A stretch of 64,000 bases of DNA from Bifidobacteriaceae bacterium (lineage in GTDB: Bacteria > Actinomycetota > Actinomycetes > Actinomycetales > WQXJ01), in the NCBI GenBank assembly GCA_031281585.1, contig JAITFE010000158.1, positions 3,477-67,476 on the forward strand, read 5' to 3'. Below, one piece after another: positions 14,387 to 61,585 of this stretch. The position numbers and the translations under genes were made by a program. Numbering within the stretch: the first letter of the stretch is position 1; each line of letters begins with the position of its first letter. The notes under the pieces are model-generated. The model made no database searches. It was given only the letters and a program-made list of their open reading frames with translations, and had not been told where the DNA came from.

Positions 14387-14389
14387 GCT

Positions 14390-31480: not shown

Positions 31481-31623
31481 CGCTCGGGCGGCGCCGTGAC
31501 CCCGGGGCCGTCGGGGTGCGGCTTTGCGGGACAGCGGGGCCGGGGGAAGTTTTAGGTGAAAATGTCGTCTTGTCGGCCAGCCTAAATGGCCGCGGAGCGG
31601 CAATTCGTGTCAATGTTGACCCC

Positions 31624-40100: not shown

Positions 40101-43100
40101 CAATGGTTCCAGCCGACCGATGTGGACGGGGACGGCGGCGTGGAGTGGCCGTTCCTGAATCCTCCCGGCGACCCCTACCCGTACGCAGAGGCCGACTTCG
40201 ACGTGTTGAAGAACCTGGGCGTGGATCATGTGCGCCTGCCGGTGAGCTTTGACCAGCTGGCCCCGGCGGGGGACGACTACCAGATCGATTCGCGCTTGTG
40301 GGGTCCGTTGGACGGGGCTATCAAGTGGGCGAATGACCGCGGTATCAAAGTGGTGATCGACTACCACCCCGTGAACGCGCCGCCGTTCACCGAATTGGCG
40401 GAGGGCCTGCCTGCCATCTGGCGCCAAGTCGCCGAACACTACAAGGGTTACCCGGCCCATTCGGTCTACTACGAGATCCTGAACGAGCCTGACCGGGGCA
40501 TCGCGGCGACGGCGGCCGATTGGGGCGCCCTGCAGGAGGCCGCGGTCGCGGAGATCCGCCAGGTGGACCAGACCCACACTGTGGTGGTGACCCATGTTCT
40601 GAGCGAAAGCGGGAACCTGGTCAACCTGGCGGACGCGCTGCCCCGCTATGAGGACAAGTACCCGGGCCCGTTCGTTTACACTTTCCATTTCTACACGCCC
40701 GCTTTGTTCACCCACCAAGGGCTGCGGGGATGGACGCAACAGATCGAAATGCCGTTCCCGCTGGACCCGGAGGCCGAATGGCCGGCCACTGCGCCGGCCG
40801 GCGTCACCGAGGCGGACAAAGCACTGTGGGCGACCTACCCGGAGAACGCCAGCGTGGAGTACCTGACGGCCATGATGGACGCGGTGGTCCAATTTGCGCG
40901 GGACCGGAACGTGCCGGTGTGGTGCGGGGAGTACGGCCTTTACTGGGCGGCGCCCGAGGATGACGCCCTGACCTGGTTGAGGACCGTGACCGAGTTGTTG
41001 GAAGAGCGGAACATAGGCCGCGCGGTCTGGGACTACACGTACGGGTTCGGCATCTTCGATTGGAAGACACGCACCCATGACCCGGACAAACTCAACCTCA
41101 AGGCACTCGACGCGATCGGCTTCAACCCGCCGTCAACCTGGCCAAAGTCAGAGCCGCCGGTTTCAGGTCCGGGACTGACGCGCCTTGAGGTGTCCAATTC
41201 GACGGTCACGGCGTACGTGACAGACGGGGACGGCGCCGTCTTGCCGGGCCGCGAAGTCGCGTTCTCAATCCCCCATGGCGTCACGGCTGGCTTGACTTCA
41301 GGTCCGGCCTTCGTGTCCGTGACCACGGACGCGCAGGGTGCGGCGGTGCTGGCCCTGTCCGGGGCGCCTGGGTGGTACTCGGTCAGCGCGGTGGTGGACG
41401 GCGTCACGATCACCGAGGGTTCGCCCGCGCGGGTTGTGTTCGGGCCGGTAGAGGCGGTGTGGCCGGAACCGGGCGGAGACCCCGCGCCGTTGGATTCCGG
41501 CTTGCACAAGGGCGTCAGCCTGCATCACTGGTTCCAAGGCGTCGATCTGACGGGCGACGGCGTGCCGGACTGGCCGTTCTTGGATGAGCAGTCCCACCTG
41601 AACCGGTACACGGAGGCCGACTTCGACACGATGCGGAAACTAGGCATTGACCATGTGCGCATCGCGGTGGACTTCAACGGAATGTCTTCCGCCGAGAACG
41701 GCTACGAGTTGGATTCCCGGCTGTTGCCGGCCCTTGACCGGGCCATCGGCTGGGCGTTCGCGCGCGGAATCAAGGTGGTGATCGACTACCACCCCAAGAC
41801 GACCATTGAGTTCACGGACTTGACGGACGGTTTGGCGCCCATCTGGGAGCAGGTCGCCGAGCATTACGGGGACTACACGGCCTATCCAACCGACATGCTG
41901 TACTTCGAGGTCCTGAACGAACCGGTCCCCCCGCAGGGCAGCGCGTCGCGCGCGTCGACCAAACTGTGGGGCGAGGCGCAGGAAGACGCGGTCCGGGCCA
42001 TTCGCGGCAAGGACAAGCTTCATCCGATCATCGTGGGCCATGTCGCGGGCAACTCCACATTCTTGTTCGACGTGCAGCAGTGGACCCAGGACGTGGAGGT
42101 CCTGCCGCGCTACGAGGACCTGTACACGGATGACGGGCCGATCATTTACACATTCCACTTCTATGAGCCGGGCATTTTCACCATGCAGGGCACCCCCGCC
42201 ACCTCTGCGGGCGTGCTGGCCGGCATGGGCATTCCGTTCCCATGGGATCCGGCCCGCTGGCCGGAGGAGGAGCCCCAGGGGTTGAGCGTCTACGGCCACG
42301 ACGACTGGACGCGTTACGCGGAGAAGGGCACCGTCGCCTATCTGGCCAAACGGCTCGACACCGTGGCGTTGTTCGCGAACATGCGCGGTGTGCCCGTCTA
42401 CGCGGGCGAGTACGGCGTGTACGGGGGGGAGGCGCCCCGCGCCGACCGTCTGACCTGGCTCAGCTCCATGACCAAGCTCCTGGAGGAACGCAACTTGGGT
42501 CGCGCCGTGTGGAGCTACAACGGCGCGTTCGGCCTGTTCGCGGACTTCAAGGGCGGTGTTCACGACCCGGCGCTGCTTGATTCGGAGGTCGTGGCGGCGG
42601 TTGGCCTGAACCCGCCGGAAAGCTGGCCGGCGGCTCTGGACTTGGAGGCGATCCGGTTGTCGTTCCAGGGTTCGTCGGGTGTGGTCGATCCGGCGTCCGG
42701 GGTCCACGCCGCGTCGGTGGCGGTGACGGACGTGGCGGGTTTGCCGCGGGGCGACGTGGAGGTTTCGTTTGAGTTGTCCCCGGCTGCTTCGGCGTTCTTT
42801 GTCGACCCGGCCACGGGCGGGCGTCTGGACGCGAATCCTTTGGCGATGGCGTCCTCGGCGTTGGGCGTGGCGGCGGTGGCGGTGTCCGCTGACGCGTCCG
42901 CGACGGTTCATCTGATTGTGCGGATCGGCTCGGATGTGGTCGGCGAGGCGGATTTCTCGTTCGAGGCCGCGCCCGGCCCTTCCCCGAGCGCCTCGGCCAG
43001 CCCGGAGCCAAGTCCGGAGCCCAGCCCGGATCCGTCCCCAAGCCCGTCGGCGAGCCCTTCTCCTAGCCCGTCCCAAAGCCCGGAACCGCTGGTCTGCGCC

Positions 43101-46100
43101 GGACCCGTCGGCGAGTTGACGGCATCGGCCTCGGAGCCGTCCCAGGCTGTCACCTCGGCGGCCGTGGTCTGCCCCGTGGACGGGTTGGCGGCCGTCCGGC
43201 TGAACGCCCGGTTGGGCGGCGACTTGTCACGCTTGCGCGGCGAGGTCGTGGTGACCTTCAAGAACGCGCAGGGCGCCACGGTGGGATCGAAGGTGTTCGG
43301 GCCTTGGATTCACTCTTTCGCCGGGCTGGACTGGTCTGACACGTTGCCGGTTCCGGCCGGGGCGGCGTCCGTCTCGGTGGCCGCGCGGGCCACAGCCGCC
43401 TCCAGCGGCGCGATCTCCGGCACGTGGCGGGTGGCGGCGGTGGAGGCGCTGCCCAGCACCCACGTGGCGCCCGCCGGCGACCAGCCCGTCGCGATCACCG
43501 CAGGCGAATCCGCGACTTGGGCCTTCAACGTGACCCCCGCGTCCGCCCGCGGCCCGCTCGAGGTCGTTTTGACGGACGTGGACGGCGTGGAGGCGTACCG
43601 CGCGTCGGCGGTCCGCGCCGCCGACGGGTCCACCGCGGTGACCGTGCCCGCGGTGGCGCAGGGCTACTACGACGTGACGGCGACGTTCACGGCATCGGAC
43701 GATGCCGTCGCCCGGGGTTCCTGGACCAGCTCCCTGACCGCCGTGCCCGCCGGGGAGGTCCCGCAAGAGGCGCGGTTCGGGTTGGACGCGGGTCTGTCGT
43801 GGCCAAACGCCGCCGCGTACCGGGACGGGCGCTCCGCGTCAATGATCGCGAAAGCCGGGGTCGGCAGCGTCCGCGACCGGCTGAGGTGGGCCGACGTCTA
43901 CGACTGCCAAACGTGGAACACGCAGGGGCGGTATCTGGGCAACAGCGCGGTGCGGACCTACGGCGCGGTCGCGGAAGACTTCGTGGACAACGGGTTGGCC
44001 GTGGTGCACGTGTTCCAGGACGCGCCGGCGTGCGCCCGCCCCGGCGGCGCCGCCGAGCCCAACATCCCCTTGGACTACGCCCAGGTGTACAAGTTCGGGC
44101 AGGAATACGCCCGCAATTTGGGGCCGCTGGTGGAAGCGGTCGAATACTGGAACGAGCAGGCCGGCTCATTCTTCAACGGGCGGCCGTTCGAATACGCCTC
44201 CGGCCTGAAGGCGTTCACGGCCGGGGTCAAGTCGGTCCGCCCGGAAATCCGCGTCCTGATCGGCTCATCCGGCCCGGTGGGCCGGTATGAGACTGAAACC
44301 TACGCCAACGCCGTGACCAACGACTTCGACACGCGCAACCACCATTTCTACGGCTACGCCTCCGGCGGGAACACCGGCCTGACTGAGTTCGCCGCGCAAA
44401 ACAAGACGCAAGAGGCGACAACCGCGGCCGGCCTGGGTGCCCCGGCCGCCGGGCTGACCGACAAGTCCTTGTGGCTGACGGAGACCGGGGTCGACATCCA
44501 CGCCGACGCGGCCGGATCCGAACGCCCATCGGAAAAGCTCCAGGCCGAACGCTTGGCGCAGACCTACGCGGAAGGCTTCGCGGCCGGTTACGAGAGGGTC
44601 TTCGTCTTCTACTGGCAGGAACTGCTGGAGGGGAACTCGTACCTGTGGGGAATCACGCGGGACGATTTGTCGCCGCGCCCCGCCTACTACTCGCTGTCCC
44701 TGGTGACGCGTCATCTGGCGGGGATGTCGGCGGCGAAGATCGAAACCCACGGCTCCGGCAAGACGGTGTATTTCACGTGCGACAACCCGGAGGCGAAGGG
44801 CGCCACCTGCTCGCAGGGCGAAGTGCGGGCCGTGACCTGGGGCGGGGGTGTGACGCTGCCCGCCTCCGCGCAGGTGATGGACGTGTTTGGGCGTGTGGTT
44901 CCGGCCGCTCAGGCTTCCGCCGAGGGCGCGGGCACCTATCTGGTGGGGGGCTTGACCGCCGTCCCGGCGGGGGCCGCGCCTGTGACGGTCCCGCAGTCGC
45001 CCGTCGCGACCGGACCGGCGCCCTTGCGGCTCCAGGTGCAGCGGATAGTCGGCGACGGGAGGATCACCACGCTGACCGGCGCGACTGCGCATTACGACTT
45101 CCTGGTCTCCACCGGTTCCGTCATCGACATGGTCCTGGCCGCGCGCGACGCGGCCGATTCGGACGTTTCCGCGTCCACCACGGTGACGTGCGGCTATCAC
45201 ACCGGCTTCACCATCCTGTCAGACGTGAATCCCCAGCCCGTGGACGGCGAGTTCGTCTGCCGCTACCGGGTCGACCTGCCATGGGCCACCGGCGGCTGGT
45301 CCAGGATCTGGGCCCAGGCGGCACGCGGGGAAGGGGCCGCCCAAACAACCGACCAGGCGGCGGCCTGGATTGTGGCCGGACCGCCGGAGGGCGCCTTCTG
45401 GGCGCCTGGTCGAACGTTGGCCCCGGGCGACGCCATCACCTCGCCGAACGGCCGAGTCAAGGTGGTTTGGGAGGCGGACGGCCGCCTGGTGGAGTACTAC
45501 GACGGCGCCGAGGTCCGGGCCACGCCCACCGCCGGCGCCGCCAAGGCGGTCTTCCAAGCCGACAACGACTTCGTGATCACGGACCAAGCCGGCGCCGTGT
45601 TGTGGCGCACCGGCAGCGTTGGCGACTGGACGGGTGTCTTCACCGTCAACGACCAGGGCCAGGTGGCGGTCGAGCGGTTCAACCGCACCCTGGAATGGGA
45701 GTGGCTGCCCGCGCTCGAGCCACCGGGCGAGTTGCCCGTCTCGGGCCCCGGCCTGTCGCGCCTGGAGGCGGCCGCCGGGTCCGCCACCCCCGCCGATGGC
45801 GTCACCACCCGGTCGGTCACGGCCCACGTGACAAACGGTTCCGGCGCCCCGCTGGCGGGCCGCGACGTGTCGTTCTCAATCCCCTTCGGGGTCCGCGCCG
45901 GATCCTCACCGGGACCGGCCGTCATCCTGGTGGCGACGGACGCGACAGGCGCGGCGGTGTTGGCCCTGACGTCCGATGCCGCCGGGTCCTATCCGGTCAC
46001 CGCCCGCGTCAACGGGGTGGCGATCACGGAGGGCTCCCCGGCCGTGGTCGCGTTCGCCCAGCCCCTGGACCCGTCCCCAAGCCCGACGGCGAGCCCGACG

Positions 46101-49425: not shown

Positions 49426-50009
49426 AGTTCTACCTTCAAGCTTCCGGATGTCACCCGGCCCGATCCGACAACCGCGTGTGCCAGGGCGGGGTGTCTTGCT
49501 AGCGGCTCGACTCCTGGAGGCATCGTACCGGTCGTCGCCGGCCGTCCTGGTTCGGGGACTGAGCGCTTCCGGGGCGACCACCCTCCCCCCGTTCGCGATC
49601 GGATCTTGGATCGCCTGAGCCACGGCCATGTCGGTCAGGTGGCCAAGATCAAGGCGTTCGGCCCGGCGAAGAAACGTCAACACTTCGTCGTTCAGCAGGG
49701 CGTCGATGCCGTTGGGCGGTCTGGCAGCGGAGCAGGCGACGTCAAGACCCTTGTGGGAAGGCGTGCGTGCGGGCGCTTCACGGGCCGTTTGCCAAGCCCG
49801 CCCGAAGGCCTGCGTCTGCCGTTCTCGGCCGCCAGCGCGGGCGGGGTGACGGTGAACGCGAGGGCGAATGGGTTCATGGGGACGGCTCTTGGTGCGACTG
49901 CGGCTTTCCACGGCAATCCATGTCGATCGACGCCTATCTCCGCCGCAACATGGGTAGCGGGGGCCGACGCCCGCACGTCCCAGCGCCGCACGCCGAGGGA
50001 TTGGCTCAA

Positions 50010-50025
50010 ATACCCCCAGGGGTAT
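50010..50025. promoter_or_regulatory. CsoR-family operator-like palindrome ATACCCC-CA-GGGGTAT
   Basis: Perfect 7-2-7 inverted repeat ending 11 nt before ATG 50037. GC-tract palindromes flanked by TA are the known operator type of CsoR/CstR repressors, and a CsoR-family gene follows in the same operon. Confidence 0.6.
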
Positions 50026-50036
50026 ATGGTTGTAGC

Positions 50037-51743
50037 ATGCGGAGCCCGAGGATCGTTGTGGTTGGCGGCGTTGCCGGCGGAATGGCTGCGGCGGCGCGGC
50101 TGCGGCGGCTGGATGAGTCTGCACGGGTGACCGTGCTCGAAAGGGGCCGGCACGTTTCCTTCGCGGGCTGTGGGCTGCCGTATTACCTGGGCGGCGAGGT
50201 CCCGGATCAAGAGAGCCTGTTGCTGCACACGCCAGAGTCTCTGGAAGCGGCACTCGCGCTGGATGTGCGTGTGGGACATGAGGTCCTGGGGTTGAATCCG
50301 GAGGATCAGACGGCGCGCGTCCGGGCGGGCGCTCAAGAGTTCGACCTGCCCTACGACGAACTCATCCTGGCCCCGGGCGCCACGCCGATCCTCCCGCCCG
50401 GCGACGGGCTGAAGAACCCGCGGAATCCGCGCGTGCGCGCCCTGCGCACAATCGAAGACGCCGCCGTCCTGCGCGCGCTGGCCCAAGGCGCGGCCAGCGG
50501 CGCAAACAGGGCAGTTGTCTTGGGAGCGGGGTTCATTGGGCTTGAGGCCGCAGAGGCGCTGCGGTCGCGCGGCTTGAATGTCACGCTGGTGGAACTGGCC
50601 AACCAGGTTCTACCGCCTCTCGAACCGGAGTTGGCGTGGCTGGTCGGCGACGAATTGCGCCGGTTGGGCGTGGACGTCCGCACCGGCGTCAAGGCTGAGA
50701 AGGTGTCCGATGCCGTCCGGCACAGCGCCGTTCACCTGTCCAGTGGCGAGGTGGTGGACGCCGACATGGTCCTCCTGAGCGTTGGCGCCAAACCGGACAC
50801 CGCCCCCTTCGAGGCTGCGGGTGTGGTGTCCGAGCGCGGCGCGATCCTGGTCGATCACCACGGCCGGACCAACCTGCCGCACGTTTGGGCGGTCGGGGAC
50901 GCCACCCTCAGCACCGATGCCGTCACGGGCACCCGGAAGCCCGTCGCCTTGGCCGGGCCCGCAGTTCGCGCGGGCCGCTTGGTTGCTGACGCGATTGGGG
51001 CGCCGGGGGCGCGGGCCATCCCCAGGCCGTTGGGCACGGCCATAGTGCGGGTCGGCGGTTTGACGGCCGCGATGACCGGCGCGAACCGCGCCGCCTTGCG
51101 CGCCGCCGGGCGGGAGTTCGCCACCGTGCACGTTCACGCGGCGCAACACGTCGAATGGCTGCCCGGAGCCCAGCGCCTGCACCTGGTGGCCCACTTCGAC
51201 CCGGCCACGGGAGCTCTCTTGGGAGCGCAGGCGGTCGGCCCCGTCGGCGTGGACAAGCGGATCGACGTGATCGCCACGGCGATTCGGGCGGGAATGACCG
51301 CCCCCGACTTGATGGACTTGGACCTGTGCTATTCGCCGCCGTACGGCGCTCCACGTGACCCGGTGACAATGGTGGGATTGGTTGCTGACAACGTGGTCAC
51401 CGGCCAGACCCGGCTCTGGCAGTCCGACGAATTGGATTGGGCGACCAACCAGGCCCTGCTGCTTGACGTGCGCTCACCGGATGAGTTCGCGGCCGGGCAC
51501 CTTGCGGGCGCGGTCAACGTTCCGCACACTGCTCTGCGCGGGCGCCTGGCTGAAGTACGCGAACTGGCCGGTGGGCGTCAGATAGCCGTTTTGTGCGAAT
51601 CTGGCGTCCGCAGCTACACCGCCCACCGCATTCTGACCGCCGCCGGGCTCGAATCACGCACGCTGTCCGGCGGCATGGCGACGCTGCGCGCCTGGCTGGG
51701 GGACTCGGTCTCCGACCTGGTGAACTGCGGGGCAGAACCATGA
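50037..51743 (+). CDS. CoA-disulfide reductase / NADH-dependent persulfide reductase with C-terminal rhodanese domain
   Basis: IVVVGGVAGG FAD motif and redox Cys in VSFAGCGLPYY (CoADR-type). Second Rossmann VVLGAGFIGLE. C-terminal rhodanese with active-site CESGVRS. Confidence 0.9.
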   Translation: MRSPRIVVVGGVAGGMAAAARLRRLDESARVTVLERGRHVSFAGCGLPYYLGGEVPDQESLLLHTPESLEAALALDVRVGHEVLGLNPEDQTARVRAGAQEFDLPYDELILAPGATPILPPGDGLKNPRNPRVRALRTIEDAAVLRALAQGAASGANRAVVLGAGFIGLEAAEALRSRGLNVTLVELANQVLPPLEPELAWLVGDELRRLGVDVRTGVKAEKVSDAVRHSAVHLSSGEVVDADMVLLSVGAKPDTAPFEAAGVVSERGAILVDHHGRTNLPHVWAVGDATLSTDAVTGTRKPVALAGPAVRAGRLVADAIGAPGARAIPRPLGTAIVRVGGLTAAMTGANRAALRAAGREFATVHVHAAQHVEWLPGAQRLHLVAHFDPATGALLGAQAVGPVGVDKRIDVIATAIRAGMTAPDLMDLDLCYSPPYGAPRDPVTMVGLVADNVVTGQTRLWQSDELDWATNQALLLDVRSPDEFAAGHLAGAVNVPHTALRGRLAEVRELAGGRQIAVLCESGVRSYTAHRILTAAGLESRTLSGGMATLRAWLGDSVSDLVNCGAEP

Positions 51744-51780: not shown

Positions 51781-52137
51781 ATGACCGAAACCCCCGCCGA
51801 TCAATCAGTCGCGGCCCAGGAGCCGGCCGCCGTCCGGCGTCAAGTGCTGAACCGGTTGAACCGCGCCCAGGGCCAGTTGGGCGCGGTGATCAGAGCGGTC
51901 GAGGCCGGCACGGATTGCCGGGCGGTCATCACGCAGCTGGCGGCGGTGTCCGCCGCGGTGGACCGTGCCGGCTTCGCCATAGTGGCCTCCGGCTTGAAAC
52001 GCTGTTTCAGCCGCGATGCGGGCGCGGGGACCTCCCCGGATCCCGCCGCCGCCCAGGCTGCTGGCCCGCCCGGCCTGGACGCTGACGCGGGCATGACCGT
52101 CCAGGATTACGAGAAACTCTTCATGATGCTCGCCTGA
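51781..52137 (+). CDS. CsoR/RcnR-family repressor, His-less (CstR-like)
   Basis: VLNRLNRAQGQLGAVIRAVE...DCRAVITQLAAV...ASGLKRC. Both Cys are present, but the His of the CsoR C-H-C triad aligns with Gly. Confidence 0.85.
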   Translation: MTETPADQSVAAQEPAAVRRQVLNRLNRAQGQLGAVIRAVEAGTDCRAVITQLAAVSAAVDRAGFAIVASGLKRCFSRDAGAGTSPDPAAAQAAGPPGLDADAGMTVQDYEKLFMMLA

Positions 52138-53025: not shown

Positions 53026-53128
53026 GTACCGCGCGACGGTTCCCTGCGCGCGATTGACTGTTCAGGCAGCCCATTCCCCCTGATCAGACCGCAAAACCGC
53101 GCGCACAAGCCGCGAAGTCAGGATCCGG

Positions 53129-53150
53129 CTTGACCTTGACGTTACGTCAC
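53129..53150 (+). promoter_or_regulatory. MerR-type operator/promoter motif, copy 1 (CTTGACCTTGACGTTACGTCAC)
   Basis: TTGACC (-35-like, 53130-53135), a 19-bp spacer containing the palindrome TGACG-TTA-CGTCA, then TGTAAT (53155-53160). It lies 78 nt upstream of the small ORF at 53228. Confidence 0.6.
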
Positions 53151-53227
53151 AGCCTGTAATGAATGATGCAAGAGCGAAGGGCCCCGAGGTTCTTCGCGCA
53201 GACATCGCCCGAAAGGAAATATAAGGC

Positions 53228-53314
53228 ATGAACACCGCCGACTCTGATATCCAGCTTGACCTGACCGTGACTGAATTTGACGCCACCGAAGCCCCTTCAT
53301 TCGTCTGGTGGTGA
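53228..53314 (+). CDS. Candidate RiPP precursor peptide (28 aa): MNTADSDIQLDLTVTEFDATEAPSFVWW
   Basis: Not in the ORF track (<60 aa). AAAGGA lies 10 nt upstream of ATG 53228. Sits downstream of MerR-type promoter copy 1 and 48 nt upstream of the RRE-M50 gene. Acidic leader-like N-terminus (6 D/E, no K/R) and hydrophobic C-terminus. Confidence 0.5.
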   Translation: MNTADSDIQLDLTVTEFDATEAPSFVWW

Positions 53315-53362
53315 TCACCGCCAACCGATTCGGCGCTTCGATCCGAGGAGACGAGTGAGACG

Positions 53363-54685
53363 GTGAGTGCCTTGCTAACACGCTTCCGGCCCGCGCCGGG
53401 AACAACGTCGCGGCTCCAGGCCGATAGCGGTCTTCTCCTCGTCTCCCGTTCGGATTGTCGAGTATTCCAACTCGGCCGCGACGCGGGTCGCCTCTTCGAC
53501 GCTCTAGCCGCCGAAGGCGACCCGCGCGACGCCGATGACCTTTGCGACATGTTGGGCTGTGGTCGCAATGCCGAATCCGTGGAGCGGGCGCTCGCGTCAA
53601 TGGAGGCATTGGGACTGGTGTCCCGCGTGGGACGGGCGGGTCCGGTCTCGGGTCCGCCACGCCGCTCCCGGATCGCGTTTCGTCCGCCGCTCGCGGTTGC
53701 CGTCAGACTGATCGACCCCTCGCGGCTACTGGCGTTTCTCGCCCCGCTGGCGGTGCTGCTGCGCGGTCGCCTTGGCCTGTGCCTTGGACTGGCAGGACTC
53801 ATGGCGCAAGTCGCGTTCCTATGCTGGGCCCCGCCCGCTTGTGTCAAGGATCCGTTTCACGCTGTGCTCGCAGCTTCCCTGGTACTTGGCGTGGCGGGAT
53901 TGCACGAGCTCGCTCACGGGTTAGTCATGACCCGCGCAGGCGTGAGTTCCCGAGGGATCGGATTCATGTTCATGGGTCCGGTGCCTCTTCTGTACTGCGA
54001 CGTTTCCGGCAGCGTTGCGTTGTGCCGTCGGGCCCAAGTCGATGTCGCCCTTGCCGGGGTGGTAATGCAGGCCCAGGTGGGCGCGCTCCTTCTGCCGATG
54101 GCGGCCGGCGCCAACTCACTTGGCGTGATTAGGGCGTTCATCGCGGTCAACCTGATGATGATGGCTGGAAACGCGGTTCCATTTCTTCCCTTGGACGGAT
54201 ACATCGCGCTTAGGGCAGGGCTCGGCAGACCCAACTTGCGGACGGCTGCCATCGCGGAGTTTGGTCGGTGGGTGGTTCGCCTCGTGGGACGGCAAGGCCC
54301 GGGCGGGGAACGCGGAAGCGAACCAAGATGGCTTGCCGCGTTCGGCGGAGCGGCGGCGCTTGCGCCGGTTTGCCTGGTGGGCGTCGCGGTTTGGCGATCA
54401 AGCGAACTTGCCGGATGCGCCGGCGGGATCGGGGCGCTGGCGGTGGCCGTGGTGGTGTGGCTGGTAAGTCGAATCGCGCCGAATGTGGCTCGCTCGGCGC
54501 GATCACAGGGTTCCTGTACCCTGTTGCCAGGCAATCGATGCGTTCCGCGCCAGGGACGCACGTCCTACGGGGAAGGACTGGAGAGACCGGGTGGACCTGA
54601 CGATTGGCGAACTCGCGCGGATGGTGGGCCTGACGCCCAGGACGGTCCGTTACTACGAGAGCATTGGGCTGCTTCCAGAGCCTGA
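53363..54685 (+). CDS. PqqD/RRE-like domain fused to an M50-family (site-2 protease-like) membrane zinc metallopeptidase
   Basis: GTG 53363 with GAGGAG upstream. The N-terminal about 90 aa has a PqqD-like pattern (LLLVSRSDCRVFQLGRDAGRLFDALAAEG...AESVERALASMEALGLVS). Multi-TM core with HELAH (53903-53917) and NAVPFLPLDGY. The last 95 nt overlap the MerR gene, so the C-terminal end is uncertain. Confidence 0.7.
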   Translation: MSALLTRFRPAPGTTSRLQADSGLLLVSRSDCRVFQLGRDAGRLFDALAAEGDPRDADDLCDMLGCGRNAESVERALASMEALGLVSRVGRAGPVSGPPRRSRIAFRPPLAVAVRLIDPSRLLAFLAPLAVLLRGRLGLCLGLAGLMAQVAFLCWAPPACVKDPFHAVLAASLVLGVAGLHELAHGLVMTRAGVSSRGIGFMFMGPVPLLYCDVSGSVALCRRAQVDVALAGVVMQAQVGALLLPMAAGANSLGVIRAFIAVNLMMMAGNAVPFLPLDGYIALRAGLGRPNLRTAAIAEFGRWVVRLVGRQGPGGERGSEPRWLAAFGGAAALAPVCLVGVAVWRSSELAGCAGGIGALAVAVVVWLVSRIAPNVARSARSQGSCTLLPGNRCVPRQGRTSYGEGLERPGGPDDWRTRADGGPDAQDGPLLREHWAASRA

Positions 54686-55370
54686 TCGCACTTGGGGAAA
54701 CTATCGCCTGTACTGCGAAGAAGACGTCATCCGTCTTACTCGCGTTAAACGGCTCACCGCAATGGGGCTGAGCCTAGAACAGGTCGCCGACGTTATCGGC
54801 AGACCGGTTGACGAATCCTCAGAAGAGGTTCTGACGGAGCTGAATAGGCGGCTCCAATCTGAGATTCGAGTCGCGCGCGAGCGGCAGAAAGCCATTGACC
54901 GCATAAGGGGAACCGGTGCCACAATCGACGCGGAGCCGGAATTCGCCGCCAGGCTAGTAAAGCAAGAACAGGCGGAGTTGACTGAATTTGAGCGCGACTA
55001 CAGCCGGGTCCTGGTTGACGCCGTCACCGCGCTCGGCTCGGACTCTGACCGCGCCCGCCTCGAATGGCTCTTTGCCCACGGTGACGCGTTATCGACGCTG
55101 CCGGAGTTCCAGGCCCTCAATTCGCTCGACAAGGATCTGGCCGCTCTGCCGGATGATGCGACCGAGGAGGAGATCGAAAAGCTGGCCGATGCCTACATCA
55201 CGGCGCATGAGGCGGCTGATCAAGCGTTCCCGCCCGGTATCGCCCGAACCTGGTCGCCCCGCTTGGCTGATGTGTTAGACGCCCTTTTGGACAACCGGCT
55301 CAGCGATGCCCAGGTCGAGGTCCAACGCCGCGTCCGAACCGCTCGCCGCGACGGCGGCGCGAGACACTGA
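54591..55370 (+). CDS. MerR-family transcriptional regulator (long C-terminal effector domain)
   Basis: GTG 54591 gives VDLTIGELARMVGLTPRTVRYYESIGLLPEP...YRLYCEEDVIRLTRVKRLTAMGLSLEQV (MerR HTH + coiled coil). About 150 aa of additional C-terminal sequence. Confidence 0.85.
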   Translation: MDLTIGELARMVGLTPRTVRYYESIGLLPEPDRTWGNYRLYCEEDVIRLTRVKRLTAMGLSLEQVADVIGRPVDESSEEVLTELNRRLQSEIRVARERQKAIDRIRGTGATIDAEPEFAARLVKQEQAELTEFERDYSRVLVDAVTALGSDSDRARLEWLFAHGDALSTLPEFQALNSLDKDLAALPDDATEEEIEKLADAYITAHEAADQAFPPGIARTWSPRLADVLDALLDNRLSDAQVEVQRRVRTARRDGGARH

Positions 55371-55401
55371 CCCCTAGTGATGTTTGGCTCGCGGACGGCC
55401 G

Positions 55402-55423
55402 CTTGACGTTGACGCGGGGTCAG
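55402..55423 (+). promoter_or_regulatory. MerR-type operator/promoter motif, copy 2 (CTTGACGTTGACGCGGGGTCAG)
   Basis: TTGACG (55403-55408), a 19-bp spacer with TGACG-CGG-GGTCA, then TTGGGT (55428-55433). GTG 55441 follows about 8 nt later, consistent with a leaderless mRNA. Confidence 0.55.
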
Positions 55424-55440
55424 AGTGTTGGGTCGGGTAT

Positions 55441-55857
55441 GTGACAAGCATCCAGAATCCGCCAGTGCCCGGCCATGCCGGCTCCCAGACCCCGATCCAG
55501 TTGGAATACACCACGCGAGAGGCGGCGCAATTGGTTGGGTTGACCGCCCGCGCGCTGCGCTACTACCACCAGGTGGGGCTCCTGCCCGAGGGCCGGCGCG
55601 GACCCGGTGGCCAGCGCATCTACACCCGCGAGCAGATCCTGATGTTGCTCCGGATAGTGCGTCTGAGCGAAATGGGCCTCTCCCTAGAGGAGGTGGCGGA
55701 TGTCTTGGGTGGCCCGCCGGGGACTCACCGCGCAGAGGTCATTCTTGTGAGCTTGGACCGCGCGCTGGCTGACCGGGTCGGCGTGATCCAGGCCCAGCGC
55801 CGTGTCATCCGTGAGCTGCTCACGACGGGATCGCCCGTGATCAAACGCGGTGGGTGA
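55441..55857 (+). CDS. MerR-family transcriptional regulator (short)
   Basis: YTTREAAQLVGLTARALRYYHQVGLLPEGRR...RIYTREQILMLLRIVRLSEMGLSLEEV. GTG 55441 is preferred over the track start 55384, which lies upstream of and across the promoter motif. Confidence 0.8.
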   Translation: MTSIQNPPVPGHAGSQTPIQLEYTTREAAQLVGLTARALRYYHQVGLLPEGRRGPGGQRIYTREQILMLLRIVRLSEMGLSLEEVADVLGGPPGTHRAEVILVSLDRALADRVGVIQAQRRVIRELLTTGSPVIKRGG

Positions 55858-55907: not shown

Positions 55908-57797
55908 CTAGGGAAACGGGTGCGGCACCAAGTTGGGTACGAACGCCGATGCCGGGCGGCCGGTGTGCGCCGCCCACGCGTCCCGCAGTCGGGGCATCCG
56001 TAGGGCGCGCTGAACCGACCAGCCGAAGTCGATCGGGATTAGCCCAGGGACGATCGCCTTGGCCGCGTGGGCCCCGAGCCTTGTCAGTAGTGGAATCGTC
56101 TGGTCTACCACGATCGGCTCGAAGCCCGCCTGGCTGGTGATCTCGATGAGCCAGCCAAGACCCAGGCCGGGCTCGTCGGCTTCGGCCGCGCTTCGGCATG
56201 GTCCAACCTTGTCCACCGGAACCAACGGCTCCGCTGGCCCATCCAGCAAGAATGCGGCCAAGTGGCGGGCCGCGGGATTCTTGAACATGTCAGCGTGATC
56301 CTCCAACCGCCTGACCGCCTGGAAATCGCGAATCATGGCGTCGGTCTGCGTCAGCCTTCCCTGCGTCATGCGATGCGTCGAGGCCGAGTCGGAGGTGAAA
56401 CCCAGTCCGAAGTCGGAGCAGATCTCCGACAAGGCGCCCAGGATGGCGTCCTGCGGATCAGGCCGACTGGCGGCGCCGAAACAAAGGGCGCCGCTCTTTT
56501 CATTCTCGGCGACAGCCATCACAGTTGGAACCGGCAAACCAACCGTGCAATCGAAGAGGCGGACCTGCTGCCCATATAGCCGCATGCGTGCCAGCATCAT
56601 CTGCGCCAAATTGGATTCGACCCCGTTGGGGTCGATCTCGCGGAGGGGAATCCCGCCATACCAAGCGATAAGGAACGAGTCTCGTTCAATCACTTCGAGG
56701 AGGCCATAGAACGCGGCCTCTGCCAGAGTTGAACCAACGGCACAGCCACTCGAAGTTTCGAAGGCGAATAGCTCTGCGGCCGGCTCGGCCCCGTAATACA
56801 CCAGCGACTCTGGAACTGCGACAACCTCTCTCGCGCGCAGCGAATAGCCGGGCACCCAATTCATCTCCGCCGGAACCGGGAACGGCCAGTCCTCGGGCGC
56901 CAAGCCGAATTCGCTCGGGCCTACGGCGCGCACCGGTAGATCGGCAGCGGATCCCCGCCAACGCAGCGCACGCTGGGCCGGCCTGTACCCGGCGATCCGC
57001 TCCAGTCCTTCCAGCACGCCAATGGCCTCGGAATCGGCGAATGTGCCGGCGTGGCCGCCCCAATGCAGCGACCAATTCTCCCTGTGGGCGCCCAACCGCT
57101 TCTCTCCAGCGACCTTGGCGGGAATCTCTGACTCAAGGTCCCAAAACGATCGGGATCCAGCCAAAGCCGTTGCTGGATGAAGGAAATCGCTTGGTTGCAG
57201 CGCGTCGAAATGGGAGCGGGCCGGGGCGCGGGGCACAAGCAGCGCGTCGCCCGGCCGGAGTTGTCCCTCATAATCTGCGGGCGGAGCCTCAGGTGCGAAC
57301 TCATGGTGCCGGGACGGGTGACACGGCTCACAGGCCAATAGGCGTACACCCGTGATGCCCAACCGCAACCGGTCAATTCCAACCACCGCTGGGGCCGCCG
57401 CGGGATCGGAAGTGGCAAGGGTTTCGAGTAGGCGGGCCATCAACTCGGCCTCGAACGGGTTGCTCCCCGGCAGATCCACGCCGACCTCCGCAGTGCTCAC
57501 TGCGTGGCGGAGCGACGGATCGTAGCCCACGGCCTCCATCACACAGGGAACGCAGCTGGTTGCCCTGGGATCCGAGACAAAGACGTGGGTCGGCGTGCGG
57601 TAGATGACCGGACCATCCCACTGGATCGCCAGATCGGGGTCCGAGTGCCCCGAGGGGGCCGGACCCAAAGCGTCCACCACCAGGCATGGGCACGGGTCTG
57701 GGGGGAGCTTCGCATCGGGCACTAACGGGTCCTGTCGCTGGTCGGGGTGGGTCATGAGGGAACTGGCGCGGGCGTTTGGGACCTTATCACACACCAT
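55908..57797 (-). CDS. YcaO-domain cyclodehydratase (SagD family) with Cys-rich N-terminal extension
   Basis: FETSSGCAVGSTLAEAAFYGLLEVIERDSFLIAWY (YcaO ATP/Mg core-like). Pro-rich C-terminus ...VPNLVPHPFP, typical of azoline-forming YcaOs. The N-terminal about 230 aa has CPC, CVPC and CEPC. The alternative start ATG 57755 (MTHPDQ) is equally possible. Confidence 0.88.
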   Translation of the reverse strand: MVCDKVPNARASSLMTHPDQRQDPLVPDAKLPPDPCPCLVVDALGPAPSGHSDPDLAIQWDGPVIYRTPTHVFVSDPRATSCVPCVMEAVGYDPSLRHAVSTAEVGVDLPGSNPFEAELMARLLETLATSDPAAAPAVVGIDRLRLGITGVRLLACEPCHPSRHHEFAPEAPPADYEGQLRPGDALLVPRAPARSHFDALQPSDFLHPATALAGSRSFWDLESEIPAKVAGEKRLGAHRENWSLHWGGHAGTFADSEAIGVLEGLERIAGYRPAQRALRWRGSAADLPVRAVGPSEFGLAPEDWPFPVPAEMNWVPGYSLRAREVVAVPESLVYYGAEPAAELFAFETSSGCAVGSTLAEAAFYGLLEVIERDSFLIAWYGGIPLREIDPNGVESNLAQMMLARMRLYGQQVRLFDCTVGLPVPTVMAVAENEKSGALCFGAASRPDPQDAILGALSEICSDFGLGFTSDSASTHRMTQGRLTQTDAMIRDFQAVRRLEDHADMFKNPAARHLAAFLLDGPAEPLVPVDKVGPCRSAAEADEPGLGLGWLIEITSQAGFEPIVVDQTIPLLTRLGAHAAKAIVPGLIPIDFGWSVQRALRMPRLRDAWAAHTGRPASAFVPNLVPHPFP

Positions 57798-57821: not shown

Positions 57822-57843
57822 CTTGACCTTGACGCGACGTCAC
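57822..57843 (+). promoter_or_regulatory. MerR-type operator/promoter motif, copy 3 (CTTGACCTTGACGCGACGTCAC)
   Basis: TTGACC (57823-57828), a 19-bp spacer with TGACG-CGA-CGTCA, then TTGACT (57848-57853). ATG 57861 lies 8 nt downstream (leaderless-type). The motif sits in the divergent YcaO / E1-like intergenic region. Confidence 0.6.
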
Positions 57844-57860
57844 GGTTTTGACTTCAAGCC

Positions 57861-59954
57861 ATGACCCGCTCACAGCAAGGAATCGGCCCATCGACAGCCC
57901 TTTCGCTTGAAGCGCCGCAGCCCTCCGGAGCCGCCCCAGGCGCGAAGCTAAGGCTCCGAGCCAACACCATGTTCAGCTCGTCCGCTGCCGGTATCCGCTT
58001 CTCCAACACCGAGACGGTCCTTGAGATCGCCGGTGCGTCCGCCTACCGTGCCTTCAAGGCCATCGCGCCGATACTGGACGGCTCGTATTCGCGGCGCGAA
58101 CTCGCCCAGACGCTGGATCAGCGGACTTGGCAGAAGGTGGAGGCGTTTGTCGAGCCGTTGCTGGCACGGGGCTTCCTTCGCGAAATCGACCCGTGTCCGG
58201 ACGTCAGCCTCTCGCCCGATGACGAGGTGAGGTTTGCCGAGCAGCTCGCCTTCATCGCCCACTTCAAAGATGATCCGAAGCGTCGCTTTGTTCGCTTCCG
58301 CGACGCATCCATCGCCGTGGTCGGCGGCTGCCCGCTTGCTGCCTGGCTTGCCCGCGTGCTTGTCCAAAACGGCGCCCGGCGCCTGACCTATTACAGCCCC
58401 GGCGCCGCGCGCCCGGACGATCTGCCGGACTCAGTTCAGGTCCGATCGCTGGATCGCCTGGACCATGACGCGCCGGAGTGCCAGGTCCTGGTGCTGCCGC
58501 CCACACCTTGGGCGGCGCGGCGGCTGGCGCAGGCCGGAGACGGTTTTGGCGCGCCGGTGACTTTGCCGATCACAGCCTTGGGCGACAACCTCGTGATCGG
58601 CCCGATGTGGACCGCCGGTGACGATTCGGCCGCCACCTGGGCAGACATGATGGCGGCGCTGAGCGAGCACGATTCGGATGGGAGTGTCGCCCACTTCTGG
58701 GTCACCGCACTTGCGGGGGTAGAGACCGGCGCGACCGCGACAGGGCTACCTGCGGTCCAGCGGCTTGGAGCCTCCCTTGCCGCCATCGAGGTGTACCGGA
58801 ACCTGACCGAGATTTCTGAGCCTGAGACGGCCGCTTCGATCCTGGTCCTCGATTGCCTTCACGGTGAGGCCAAGCGTCACCGCGTGATCCCGCACCGGTA
58901 CATCCACCCGGCCGCCACCGGATCTATGAACAGGTGCCCGGCGTCGAGCCTGCCCGCACCTTCCGACGAAGTCTCCGGCAGGGTCGGACCAAGCTGGTCC
59001 AAGGCCTGCGCACAAGCGGTCGATCCTCTGACTCTTCCAATCATGCGATTCGACGATGGCGAGATCGAGCAATTGCCGCTCAAGGTGTCCGTGGCGGAGG
59101 TGGTGATGGGTGGCGGGAGACCACCGGTCACCATCGGCTCGGCCGATCTCTGGGATGTGGCCGGCGCTCGTGCCCGGGCTACCCGCCAGGCGCTGGCGCT
59201 GCGGCTCGAAACGTGGGCGCCCCCCGCCGCCTCGTGGGCCGAGGCGCGGACGGTCGATGGTCTCCTTCACGGTCGCACAACGCGCGACCAGGCCCACACA
59301 TCCAATCCCGTCCTGGCACGGGACCTCCTCACGGGCGAGAAAATCGCCGTGCCTTCCGGCGCCGTCGCCACCATGTCGAGCGCTAACACGCTGGGCGTCT
59401 TCGGCCGCTCAGCGCTCGGCTGCGGCATCGGACTCGACTACGACGAGGCGTTGGAGGGCGCCGTTTCCTCGGCCGCCGCGCGTCTAGGACTGATCGCGGC
59501 GGCCCGCGCGGGAGCGGCACCCCGCGCGACGGCATCGGACACCTCGCCTAAGAGCGTCTTCTTGCGCGACGCGGCCCAAAGGCTCGGCGTGGTTGTCGAA
59601 TCATTCGATGCCGGGTGCCACCTCGGCCGCCACGTCGTCATCTCGCGGTGCCGGCGCTCCGGGGTGACCGCCTGGGAGGCAGCCGCAGGCAGCGACTTGG
59701 CCGAAGCCTTGTGCGCCTCGCTCGTTGGGCTGATCGGCGCTGTGCAACGGGCCGCCAACGGAAAGGCCCCCGAGACCTGGTCGATGACGGCCGAGCCAGA
59801 GTTCGACCCGAACGGTTTGGCGACCGGAACGGCCCCTCTGGAAAAGGCCAATAGCCCCCGCGTGATTGTCTGCGACGTCACCAACCCGGAACTCGCTGCC
59901 CTCGGATTCGTGGCCGTCAAGGCCCTGACGGCGGACGGGGGCGAACCGCGATGA
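57861..59954 (+). CDS. E1/ThiF-like cyclodehydratase partner (ocin-ThiF-like) with N-terminal RRE-like wHTH and YcaO-like degenerate C-terminal half
   Basis: N-terminus IRFSNTETVLEIAGASAYRAFKAIAPILDGSYSRRELAQTL...VEPLLARGFLREI (RRE pattern). Rossmann-like IAVVGGCPLAAWLARVLVQNGARRLTYY. The C-terminal half has GCGIGLDYDEALEGAVSSAAARL but no E-x-x-ER motif. Assignment is by resemblance only. Confidence 0.65.
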   Translation: MTRSQQGIGPSTALSLEAPQPSGAAPGAKLRLRANTMFSSSAAGIRFSNTETVLEIAGASAYRAFKAIAPILDGSYSRRELAQTLDQRTWQKVEAFVEPLLARGFLREIDPCPDVSLSPDDEVRFAEQLAFIAHFKDDPKRRFVRFRDASIAVVGGCPLAAWLARVLVQNGARRLTYYSPGAARPDDLPDSVQVRSLDRLDHDAPECQVLVLPPTPWAARRLAQAGDGFGAPVTLPITALGDNLVIGPMWTAGDDSAATWADMMAALSEHDSDGSVAHFWVTALAGVETGATATGLPAVQRLGASLAAIEVYRNLTEISEPETAASILVLDCLHGEAKRHRVIPHRYIHPAATGSMNRCPASSLPAPSDEVSGRVGPSWSKACAQAVDPLTLPIMRFDDGEIEQLPLKVSVAEVVMGGGRPPVTIGSADLWDVAGARARATRQALALRLETWAPPAASWAEARTVDGLLHGRTTRDQAHTSNPVLARDLLTGEKIAVPSGAVATMSSANTLGVFGRSALGCGIGLDYDEALEGAVSSAAARLGLIAAARAGAAPRATASDTSPKSVFLRDAAQRLGVVVESFDAGCHLGRHVVISRCRRSGVTAWEAAAGSDLAEALCASLVGLIGAVQRAANGKAPETWSMTAEPEFDPNGLATGTAPLEKANSPRVIVCDVTNPELAALGFVAVKALTADGGEPR

Positions 59955-61585
59955 CCGCCACAACAATCCAAGTGGACAGGCCGACACCTGCCCCGGAGTC
60001 GTCTTGTGCCACGCTCACGCCGCTGGGCGAGGAATGGGCGGAACTGGCCCCAGGCCAGGCGGCGCGGCGGTACGCCGAGATGATCTTTCGCCGGGCCGAA
60101 CAGGGAATGCCCCTCCGCAAGTGGCAGATCGACTGGGCGGACGCCCCCTGGCCGCAGAAGTTCTACCCCGGAACCCAGCTTGTCGCCTTGCCTCGGGCCA
60201 CGGCACCAGGTGGCCTGGCCTCGGGTGGACCGGTCGCCATGGACCGCGCGCTTGGAGACCTCCTCTTCTACTCCTACGGAGTGATGGGGAGGCGCAGCCG
60301 AGTCAATTGCAACGAGTCCACATCGATGCTGGTGAACGCCGAGGAGGCCAGGTGGGCGCGAGGTGCGTCATCGGGTGGGGGCAGATACTGCGCGGGCGTG
60401 TACCTCGTGGTGGGACGCGACTTCGGTCTGGAGAGCGGGATCTACCACTATTCACCGATCCACCACGCTCTCGAGCGCCTCTCGTCGGGGGACTGGACAG
60501 GTCCCGTGGCGCATGCTCAGCGGTATCCCGCCGCGCAACAGTGCTACGTCATCCTCACCGTCAAGTACTGGCAGTCCGCCTTCAAGTACAACGACTTCGC
60601 CTGTCAGGCGACCAGCATGGACCTGGGAACTCTCACGGGGACATGGCGCTACGTGCTCGGGGAGGCCGCAGATCTCGTCCAGCCCGATCTGTGGGTGGAT
60701 GAGGCGTCGCTGGCGGGGATCCTCGACCTTGACTCCGGCGCGGAGGCCGTTTGTGCGGTCATGGGGATCGGGCCGGCCACCACCGCTGCGGTCAGTCCCC
60801 GACCGGGCGGGCGCCTGCCCCACGCCGACGAGCGTTCCCAGACGGTCCACTCGTTTGTCACCCAGCGGGCGCTCCAACGTGACGCGCTGGCAGAACGAGG
60901 AGTGCCGTCCGGCCTCGACCCGGTGTGGCCTGTACCCGAGTCTTTGACCGCCTCGCTGACGCCCGACCCAGCAGTCAAGGGGCGAATCAGCGACGTGTGG
61001 CGCCGCGAGACGTCTTTTGGGCGCTTTGACGGCGCTCCGGTCCGCGTCGAAGTGCTAATCGAATGCCTGGCTGAGGCAGACGCCGCCCAATCGGTGGTGG
61101 ACCGAACCTTCTCCGGCGCCACGGGGAGGGAAGTGGGTCTATATGTCATAGCCGAGGCCGTGGATGGCCTACCGAGAGGCTGCTACCGCTTCGATGCCGG
61201 CACGCGGGCGTTGCGCCGGGCGCACACCCGTGACGCCATGGCGATCTTGCTCCGGCGCTACTTCCTCAACAACTACGACCTCGAGCGAGCGGCGGCCCTC
61301 GTGGTCATGACTGCCAATCCGATCGGCCTTGGAGAGGCTTACGGCGTTCGCGGCTACCGCGCCATCAACACGGCCGCAGGCGCGGTTTGTCAGCATCTGC
61401 ACCTCGCATGTGCGCGGCGAGGAGTGGGCGCCGGAACGGCCCTCGGCTTCGACGCGGCCAGCGAGTTCGACGCGCTGGGGCTGTCAGGCCGGGACGCCAT
61501 TCCGGTGTTGACCATGTTCATTGGGCATGACCGGCTGGCCTCCGGGGCGCTTGACCTGTCCCTCGAATGCGGCGGGGAACGGTGA
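59951..61585 (+). CDS. SagB-type (nitroreductase-fold, FMN) azoline dehydrogenase
   Basis: ASSGGGRYCAGVYLVVG...GIYHYSPIHHALERL and a second lobe LYVIAEAVDGLPRGCYRFD...NTAAGAVCQHLHLACARRGVG. ATGA overlap with the preceding gene. Confidence 0.85.
   Translation: MTATTIQVDRPTPAPESSCATLTPLGEEWAELAPGQAARRYAEMIFRRAEQGMPLRKWQIDWADAPWPQKFYPGTQLVALPRATAPGGLASGGPVAMDRALGDLLFYSYGVMGRRSRVNCNESTSMLVNAEEARWARGASSGGGRYCAGVYLVVGRDFGLESGIYHYSPIHHALERLSSGDWTGPVAHAQRYPAAQQCYVILTVKYWQSAFKYNDFACQATSMDLGTLTGTWRYVLGEAADLVQPDLWVDEASLAGILDLDSGAEAVCAVMGIGPATTAAVSPRPGGRLPHADERSQTVHSFVTQRALQRDALAERGVPSGLDPVWPVPESLTASLTPDPAVKGRISDVWRRETSFGRFDGAPVRVEVLIECLAEADAAQSVVDRTFSGATGREVGLYVIAEAVDGLPRGCYRFDAGTRALRRAHTRDAMAILLRRYFLNNYDLERAAALVVMTANPIGLGEAYGVRGYRAINTAAGAVCQHLHLACARRGVGAGTALGFDAASEFDALGLSGRDAIPVLTMFIGHDRLASGALDLSLECGGER

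Follow-up and report, generated by a model that had tools for sequence, protein, structure and literature searches.

A daptide-type RRE-M50 protease as the candidate leader peptidase of a short aromatic-core peptide in a termite-gut Bifidobacteriaceae bacterium

We analysed a stretch of 64,000 nucleotides (the window) from a Bifidobacteriaceae bacterium whose source is a termite-gut metagenome. At 53363..54685 (+), the window encodes a 440-aa protein in which a predicted recognition element (RRE) of the kind found in pathways for peptides that are made on the ribosome and modified after translation (RiPPs) is fused to an intramembrane M50 metalloprotease resembling MpaP/DapP of daptide biosynthesis. 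The gene starts with GTG, and its ribosome-binding site (RBS), GAGGAG, lies 12 nt 5' of the start codon. Upstream is a small open reading frame (ORF) for a 28-aa peptide, MNTADSDIQLDLTVTEFDATEAPSFVWW, at 53228..53314 (+) rather than 53229-53315. This peptide divides into a leader, MNTADSDIQLDLTVTEFDATEAP, and a predicted core, SFVWW, and the RBS upstream of its ORF, GAAAGGAA, is common to a related locus, L001. The protease gene is followed by genes for two MerR-family regulators, MerR1 and MerR2, and then by genes for azole-forming enzymes.

The protease carries the sequence motifs of an M50 enzyme. HELAH (residues 181-185; 53903..53917 (+)) supplies the zinc-binding and catalytic residues H181, E182 and H185, which are invariant across a 23-member family alignment. 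NAVPFLPLDG (residues 270-279; 54170..54199 (+)) holds N270, P273, D278 and G279, each conserved at a level of at least 90% in the same alignment; from general knowledge of site-2 proteases, D278 is presumably the third zinc ligand. We modelled residues 1-385 with AlphaFold2 (AF2) from a 23-sequence alignment (pLDDT 88.4, pTM 0.83). In the model, six long hydrophobic helices follow the N-terminal domain, with HExxH in the second and the N..P..LDG segment after the fourth. This is the M50 arrangement, with HExxH in one transmembrane (TM) helix and NxxPxxxLDG in a later one, and the top Foldseek match in the PDB is SpoIVFB, an M50 site-2 protease (E 0.048).

The model also confirms, at the level of predicted fold, that the N-terminus is an RRE. 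Residues ~5-90 (53375..53632 (+)) are predicted to form a winged helix of the beta3-alpha3 type, with strands at 8-10, 15-18, 25-28 and 34-37 followed by helices at 39-51, 57-64 and 70-82. After SpoIVFB, the next PDB matches are solved RREs, namely those of TruD (probability 1.00), TbiB1, PbtF and LynD, with probabilities of 0.85-1.0. The match to TbiB1 bound to its leader has a TM-score of 0.64 on the target and an rmsd of 2.7 A over 85 columns (probability 0.99), and that to the PbtF RRE has a TM-score of 0.65. An earlier reading of this DNA made from the letters alone (the sequence-only reading) had described a strand-plus-three-helix winged helix-turn-helix (wHTH) segment leading into a polytopic M50 core with HELAH and NxxPxxPLDG, and both parts of that description agree with the model.

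The closest described relatives of the protein are daptide proteases. Daptide clusters were discovered through an RRE fused N-terminally to an intramembrane site-2 protease, and this protease, MpaP (later DapP), was assigned to leader removal (Ren et al. 2023, PMC10036551). Its NCBIfam equivalog model, NF041824 ('daptide biosynthesis intramembrane metalloprotease'), aligns to residues 20-370 of the window protease over profile positions 14-366 of 379 (E 6.8e-53). The two proteins thus share the N-terminal RRE, the M50 core and homology over their full length, and the fusion, which had been thought an unfamiliar architecture, is that of MpaP/DapP. The score of the window protease, 180.1 bits, is under the equivalog cutoff of 300 bits. 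Canonical daptide proteases (531-557 aa, ~545 aa) score 390-503 bits, whereas a subfamily of 370-460 aa that includes the window protein scores 180-227 bits; the window protein is without the ~150-aa C-terminal extension of the canonical 545-aa proteins.

We searched 1.84 billion proteins with a profile made from the window protease and its two closest relatives and obtained 162 cluster representatives at E<1e-30. Together with the NF041824 match, these data indicate that the protease is a real gene and not a chance ORF. No relative with more than 37% identity was found in 185,579 GTDB species genomes. A metagenome scan contributed 8 further loci.

The protease ORF overlaps the MerR1 gene by 95 nt, a length that had been noted as unusual. 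The overlap is real in this sequence: the MerR1 start, GTG at 54591, is supported by seven homologues whose Met1 aligns with its first residue, and the helix-turn-helix (HTH) domain runs from residue 4. A frameshift or sequence error suspected at 54560-54700 was not borne out, because an independent Logan assembly of the source run (an 18,612-nt contig with a word depth of 34) is identical over 53100-55400 with no indel, and because the protease is colinear with its homologues as far as the last TM helix, which ends near residue 381. Beyond that helix, the homologues continue for 0-60 residues in Arg/Pro/Ser-rich tails that are not conserved; total lengths in the family are 372-460 aa. The tail of the window protease (residues 386-440; 54518..54685 (+)), whose last 95 nt form the overlap, is likewise unconserved in alignments. 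The overlap is best read as run-on of this tail in GC-rich DNA. At L054, the annotated M50 and MerR genes overlap by 53 nt, similar to the window. At 54501-54520, directly past the conserved part of the protease gene and 70 nt short of the MerR1 start codon, is a perfect 7-bp inverted repeat, ACAGGGT-TCCTGT-ACCCTGT, which lacks a following T-run and so is no canonical terminator.

The 28-aa peptide belongs to a conserved set. It matches a leader hidden Markov model (HMM) built from related loci (E 7e-12) and is the sole ORF with this leader motif in the 64-kb window. Its TEFDATEAP aligns with the daptide leader motif ELExMEAP, the Pro of which is position -1 in MpaA (PMC10036551), and the predicted core is therefore only SFVWW. 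Eleven further metagenomic loci place a protease of the 370-460-aa subfamily beside the same leader and an aromatic core of 4-8 residues, which gives 12 distinct short-core loci including the window. Their cores are NIWIWLL (L001; leader end ..LDLSITEYDVTEAP), IWWL (L002; ..DLTITEYDAVDIP), DWWMG (L038; ..FSITEYDAVDAP), TWWVQ (L040; ..SILIFDATDAP), CWWWVCCR (L043; ..LTITDYDAVDAP), TWWFGV (L046), ALWMGC (L047), GFYLGL (L050), SFWFGF (L052), SFWMGL (L053) and TWWGF (L055; MNTDDNLDLTVTEYDVTDAP). The core at L057 has 11 residues and no terminal Thr.

Across the short-core loci, core position 1 is variable (S, T, D, N, I, G, A or C), and the proteases are only 31-40% identical to the window protein. 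The genes next to the module of peptide, protease and MerR also vary by locus. They are genes for thiazole/oxazole-modified microcin (TOMM) enzymes in the window, a radical-SAM cluster with its own operator at L038, a ketosynthase cluster at L052, an Opp importer at L001, and an ABC-2 exporter with a phosphopantetheinyl transferase (PPTase) at L002. We found no published paper that contains these short-core peptide sequences.

MerR1 (54591..55370 (+); 259 aa; Pfam MerR_1 E 3e-18; AF2 model pLDDT 81) has an HTH, a coiled coil and a seven-helix C-terminal domain. It is homologous over its full length, at 26-37% identity, to long MerRs of ~260 aa beside related M50 genes, and the C-terminal domain of ~150 aa is conserved among these long MerRs. 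The MerR1 C-terminal domain had no match in Pfam, PDB sequence or Foldseek searches, the full-length Foldseek query being dominated by the HTH; its alignment is shallow, with five proteins found by word-indexed searches, the window's own included. Of the 12 short-core loci, 7 have a long MerR next to the module (the window, L001, L002, L038, L040, L043 and L052), and in the remaining five the available sequence is short on one flank or both. Homologous long MerRs also flank the module at L057 and sit in a daptide cluster, L045. MerR2 is a short MerR (Pfam MerR_1 E 3e-17) of ~138 aa if it starts at GTG 55441 (55441..55857 (+)); the ORF as listed starts at 55384. Short MerRs of ~140 aa often accompany the long ones and are seen with the module at L038, L054 and L057.

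An overlong spacer between the -35 and -10 hexamers, with a palindrome inside it, is a hallmark of MerR-activated promoters. The promoter upstream of the 28-aa peptide (53130..53160 (+); exact match to TTGACCTTGACGNNNCGTCA) has this form. As read from the sequence, it consists of a -35 TTGACC, a 19-bp spacer (T TGACGTTACGTCA CAGCC) and a -10 TGTAAT, so that a perfect palindrome, TGACGTTACGTCA, falls within a spacer in the 19-20 bp range of MerR-type promoters. A motif scan placed a second copy upstream of MerR2 (TTGACGTTGACGCGGGGTCA, 2 mismatches; 55403..55433 (+)). GTG 55441 is 7 nt past its -10, which suggests that MerR2 starts there on a leaderless transcript. A third, exact copy (TTGACCTTGACGCGACGTCA; 57823..57854 (+)) occupies the 63-nt divergent intergenic region between a YcaO gene and a ThiF-like gene, with the ATG of the latter (57861) 7 nt past the -10.

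These copies exceed chance expectation. For the core 13-nt palindrome, 2 occurrences in the window compare with 0.13 expected; for the 20-nt motif with up to 3 mismatches allowed, there are 4 where 0.14 would be expected. Three of the four are the copies at 53130, 55403 and 57823, and the fourth, at 13089, is mismatched in the palindrome and probably due to chance. The consensus operator across loci is TTGACC-N-TGACG-N3-CGTCA. In 10 of the 12 short-core loci it precedes the precursor gene, the M50 gene or both, set within a promoter that has a 19-bp spacer, and it recurs several times in the daptide clusters L044 and L045. Because the precursor-protease-MerR1 operon, MerR2 and the ThiF-like/SagB operon all stand behind the same operator-promoter, we infer that they form a MerR-controlled regulon, in which MerR1 and MerR2 would control the three promoters. 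We found no published paper linking daptides with MerR. At L038 (7816-8156), a one-mismatch operator copy lies ~240 nt upstream of a 33-aa ORF (MLFELFNHNDSGCVSAGFIVCVSAGGNIGSWSI), and this ORF heads the radical-SAM / Rce1-like / ABC cluster adjoining the short-peptide module.

We compared the locus with daptide clusters. The window peptide has a leader of the ELExMEAP type, homologous to that of daptide precursors and ending in (D/E)AP, but it does not have their invariant C-terminal Thr on an aliphatic-rich core, since its 5-aa SFVWW ends in Trp. Daptide clusters encode DapB, DapC, DapD and DapM, whereas MerR regulators and azole-forming enzymes flank the module here. A tblastn search with DapB/C/D of L044 found no homologue in the 64-kb window. 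Pfam and NCBIfam scans of selected neighbour ORFs, in which 1-24 kb was not scanned and no DapM query was used, found no DapB (DUF-RRE), DapC (iron-containing alcohol dehydrogenase, Fe-ADH) or DapD (aminotransferase). The precursor without a C-terminal Thr and the window without DapB/C/D rule out a canonical daptide cluster. Since the leader is homologous to that of daptides and DapB/C/D are absent, the locus is a non-daptide offshoot of the daptide system. A short aromatic core combined with an RRE-M50 protease and a MerR regulon is apparently an undescribed variant.

The same 370-460-aa protease subfamily also occurs in genuine daptide clusters, L044, L045, L054 and L056, whose precursors end in Thr. 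L044 and L045 both have DapB-like, aminotransferase and Fe-ADH genes; of these, aminotransferase genes were found at L054 and DapB-like genes at L056. The leader of an L044 daptide precursor (MQKRELDLGVRELETLDAA, followed by the core WFFIIIIVIT) is clearly homologous to the leader of the window peptide. Precursors whose long cores have a terminal Thr occur at L004 and L005, at the former together with homologues of DapB/C/D. We did not obtain a clean phylogenetic separation of short-core and daptide-associated proteases, as P0021, from a daptide cluster, falls among the short-core proteases in a rough neighbour-joining (NJ) tree with no bootstrap.

Two of these clusters have further features. 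L044 (413-505, 4439-5052, 5161-6369, 9938-11377) holds four Thr-ending daptide precursors in one daptide cluster, together with a separate short peptide, ..DEYDAVDAP followed by SFWNW, behind its own operator. It has two RRE-M50 paralogues, of which the second, after DapC, is of the P0019 type also present in L042. L004, from an Actinomycetota metagenome-assembled genome (MAG), encodes at 7800-14200 a longer RRE-M50 with DapB/C/D homologues and daptide-like precursors (..MHELEGMDAP followed by DWWTSFLATF...VVVT). An adjoining ORF resembles, by eye only, a class III/IV lanthipeptide synthetase, suggesting a hybrid cluster.

We consider it probable, at roughly 0.7, that at this locus a daptide-type RRE-M50 protease releases a short aromatic peptide under MerR control. 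The most likely role of the protease, by analogy with MpaP/DapP, is that of a dedicated leader peptidase for the adjoining 28-aa peptide. The sequence-only reading had proposed such a role, and the daptide homology supports it, as do the homologues, which lie overwhelmingly in RiPP contexts. In this scheme, the cytoplasmic RRE would bind the leader motif (LDLTVTEFDATEAP) of the co-transcribed peptide, and the hydrophobic aromatic C-terminus would reach the membrane-embedded active site. The M50 core would then cut after Pro23, the last residue of the leader motif. SFVWW would be released at the membrane ([M+H]+ 724.345 if unmodified), and the acidic 23-aa leader would stay in the cytoplasm.

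Several observations weigh against this scheme. The characterised substrates of this protease family all far exceed a 5-residue core in length. The Pfam M50 model (PF02163) is sub-threshold for the protease, at 14.8 vs 27.2 bits, because the family is too divergent for it. The Foldseek E-values are all weak (0.05-2) because the query was the full-length protein. Pfam PqqD (PF05402) matched none of 20 N-terminal domains, which gave weak wHTH families only, and a PDB profile search of the N-terminal domain returned weak winged-helix matches and no PqqD; support for an RRE therefore comes from the predicted structure and from published work. The window protease deviates at 8 positions conserved at a level of at least 85%, W68R in the RRE among them, and is a deep branch in the rough NJ tree. 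Finally, a few termite-gut and soil metagenomes supplied most of the related loci, so that the independence of these loci is limited.

The genes beyond the MerRs comprise the enzymes of a TOMM or linear azol(in)e-containing peptide (LAP) pathway. They are a SagD-type YcaO cyclodehydratase of 629 aa (55908..57797 (-); Pfam YcaO E 1e-65; TIGR03604 222.5 bits vs a cutoff of 219.25), an Ocin-ThiF-like / YcaO-like partner of 697 aa (57861..59954 (+); weak Pfam YcaO; a partial, N-terminal match to TIGR03693, E 2e-10) and a SagB-type azoline dehydrogenase of 544 aa (59951..61585 (+); TIGR03605 113 bits vs a cutoff of 78.4; Pfam Nitroreductase). Because of the exact operator in their divergent intergenic region, the YcaO, ThiF-like and SagB genes are probably co-regulated with the peptide and protease here. 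A search of 52-64 kb for a Cys/Ser/Thr-rich small ORF that could serve the YcaO enzymes as a second precursor gave nothing, and the window ends 2.4 kb past the SagB gene.

A distant RRE-M50 resembling P0016 and annotated 'peptidase M50' is a constant component of a highly conserved Streptomycetaceae cluster, seen in at least 16 genomes (L012-L032; e.g. L015 42-14500). This cluster encodes ThiF-like, YcaO, SagB, LanB-N, LanB-C, RRE-like-M50, ABC transporter and second YcaO proteins, so the co-occurrence of RRE-M50 fusions with YcaO/LanB genes that had been raised from the sequence alone is indeed seen there. The cluster precursor, ..EILELESETFEISDYSDASEVMLGS followed by STSCSSTSTCSSTTSTTSCTA (for example L013 14577-14753 (-)), has an almost invariant core, STSCSSTSTCSSTTSTTSC(T/S/C)A. 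The window YcaO, SagB and ThiF-like proteins are ~26-41% identical to proteins of the cluster over long alignments, the ThiF-like protein being 26-31% identical (alignments of 442-690 aa) to the product of its first gene. The Streptomycetaceae protease shares with the window protease an RRE-like N-terminus, an M50 domain and ThiF-like, YcaO and SagB homologues nearby, but it is distant (E 6.5e-4, ~36% identity over the M50 core), and its cluster has a 21-aa Ser/Thr/Cys core and LanB genes, whereas LanB is absent from the window. We found no publication with these cluster sequences.

In this genome, the protease may instead serve as leader peptidase of the azole-forming pathway, with the ThiF-like, YcaO and SagB enzymes modifying the 28-aa peptide, for example by converting Ser24 or leader Thr residues into azol(in)es, before the M50 core trims it. 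This would fit the operator copy that serves the ThiF-like/SagB operon, the lack of any other leader-bearing small ORF in the window, and the Streptomycetaceae cluster, where related enzymes accompany an RRE-M50 and where the precursor leader (..ESETFEISDYSD..) resembles the FxITEYD motif; its FEISDY is similar to the VTEFD/ITEYD of window-type leaders. Thiopeptide leaders may have a motif akin to LEISDY. Published daptide clusters, too, may hold YcaO and azoline dehydrogenase genes (PMC10036551). However, tblastn found no YcaO, SagB or ThiF-like gene in any of the 11 other short-core loci on the sequence available, which for five of them is 10.9-16 kb. The only cyclisable residue of the predicted core is at position 1, and its cyclisation would draw on the carbonyl of the Pro-Ser bond proposed for cleavage. 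Position 1 is not conserved among loci. A true Cys/Ser/Thr-rich precursor could moreover lie past the window end. Of the azole-pathway role once proposed for the protease, the shared operator in this window thus speaks for it and the other short-core loci speak against it, and we regard it as a tentative alternative for this genome only, not as the general function of the module.

If the short peptide were a signal, the protease would mature an autoinducer-like aromatic peptide or free the acidic leader into the cytoplasm, and the C-terminal domain of the co-encoded MerR would sense one or the other and activate the operator-bearing promoters of the module and of the adjoining biosynthetic cluster. 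The constancy of peptide, protease, MerR and operator against changing neighbours suits this idea, as do the conserved 150-aa domain of the MerR and the daptide cluster L044, with its SFWNW peptide behind an operator and its second M50 paralogue. In Firmicutes, M50 proteases of the Eep type mature short hydrophobic pheromones (Rgg/SHP and the enterococcal sex pheromones). There, too, an M50 protease frees a short hydrophobic C-terminal peptide from a ~25-aa precursor with a cytoplasmic regulator alongside, but that regulator is of the RRNPP rather than the MerR family and the window protease has an RRE, so the likeness is one of logic and not of homology. TipAL is a MerR regulator with a C-terminal thiopeptide-sensing domain, and MerR1 resembles it in its ~255-aa MerR layout of HTH, coiled coil and helical C-terminal domain and in its association with a RiPP. 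Against this, the MerR1 C-terminal domain has no sequence (Pfam, PDB) or Foldseek match to TipAS, and a TipAS-like sensor could not be shown. There is no conserved dedicated importer or exporter, and a MerR of the same family in the ordinary daptide cluster L045 may mean that MerR1 is simply a pathway regulator. That these peptides are a new family of actinobacterial signals, matured by RRE-M50 proteases, sensed by MerRs and switching on adjoining clusters (azole enzymes here, daptide, radical-SAM or ketosynthase clusters at other loci), seems rather unlikely to us. A decaying remnant of a daptide cluster, with a truncated precursor, an orphaned protease and no current function, is less probable again. 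It would account for the absence of DapB/C/D, the 8 altered protease positions, the module's third-position GC of 0.70 where most window genes have at least 0.8, and the resemblance of the short cores to the aromatic N-terminal stub of daptide cores (WFF.., DWWTSF.., GFWGF..). However, 12 distinct loci keep an intact ORF, a 4-8-residue aromatic core, the HExxH and LDG motifs and operators, and such retention alongside divergent proteases indicates purifying selection. Hardly credible, finally, is a housekeeping site-2 protease of the RseP/SpoIVFB type that cleaves an anti-sigma factor or other membrane protein beside a coincidental small ORF. The M50 motifs are generic and SpoIVFB is the top Foldseek match, but no sigma or anti-sigma gene is adjacent, an RRE stands in place of PDZ or CBS domains, the protein matches the daptide protease family best, and in 12 loci the small ORF is kept next to a homologue.

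Membrane M50 proteases dedicated to maturing a small ribosomal peptide are also known from other RiPP pathways, as EpeP/YydH in epipeptides and TglG/TmoG in pearlins (PMC10885120). Unlike the window protease, these are without an N-terminal RRE and only weakly similar to it, and TglG and TmoG have carboxypeptidase activity. Subfamily members have NF058609 (YydH/LiaK) as their second-best NCBIfam match, with E 0.04 for the window protein.

Although the RRE-M50 fusion is already known, the module of a leader-bearing mini-peptide, an intramembrane protease, MerRs and a shared operator may be new. This compact module recurs, split off from daptide pathways, beside varied biosynthetic clusters. If the peptide is an end product, few RiPP cores processed by an RRE-dependent enzyme would be as short. 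Should it be a signal, the locus would represent a peptide-based regulatory circuit in Actinomycetota, from which little of this kind is documented, and a means of switching on silent clusters. The operator motif also offers a simple sequence tag for locating regulon members.

Other parts of the window yielded minor observations. Third-position GC at 53228-55370 (precursor, protease and MerR) is 0.66-0.71, compared with 0.80-0.94 for most window genes, a difference that points to recent acquisition or to a weaker codon bias. On its left, the peptide module is bounded by a CoA-disulfide-reductase-like flavoprotein with a C-terminal rhodanese domain (49767-51743 (+); the ORF as listed probably begins too early, the true start being near residue 90) and a small protein that resembles, by eye only, a CsoR/RcnR-type metal-sensing repressor (51781-52137 (+)). 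Further upstream, 34131-47738 (+) is a single ORF of 4535 aa with a high third-position GC (0.87), in which two stretches resemble GH5 cellulases and Ig-like domains of the Big_1/Big_6 families are present. Its product has the look of a giant glycoside hydrolase, either secreted or on the cell surface, consistent with the termite-gut origin. A GH65 glycoside hydrolase/phosphorylase (28823-31480 (+)) is followed by a LuxR-type response regulator (31120-32292 (+)). A gene for an AAA_14/DUF4143 ATPase occurs both in the window (24550-25893 (+)) and near the L052 module (13764-15062 (+)), which is probably coincidental.

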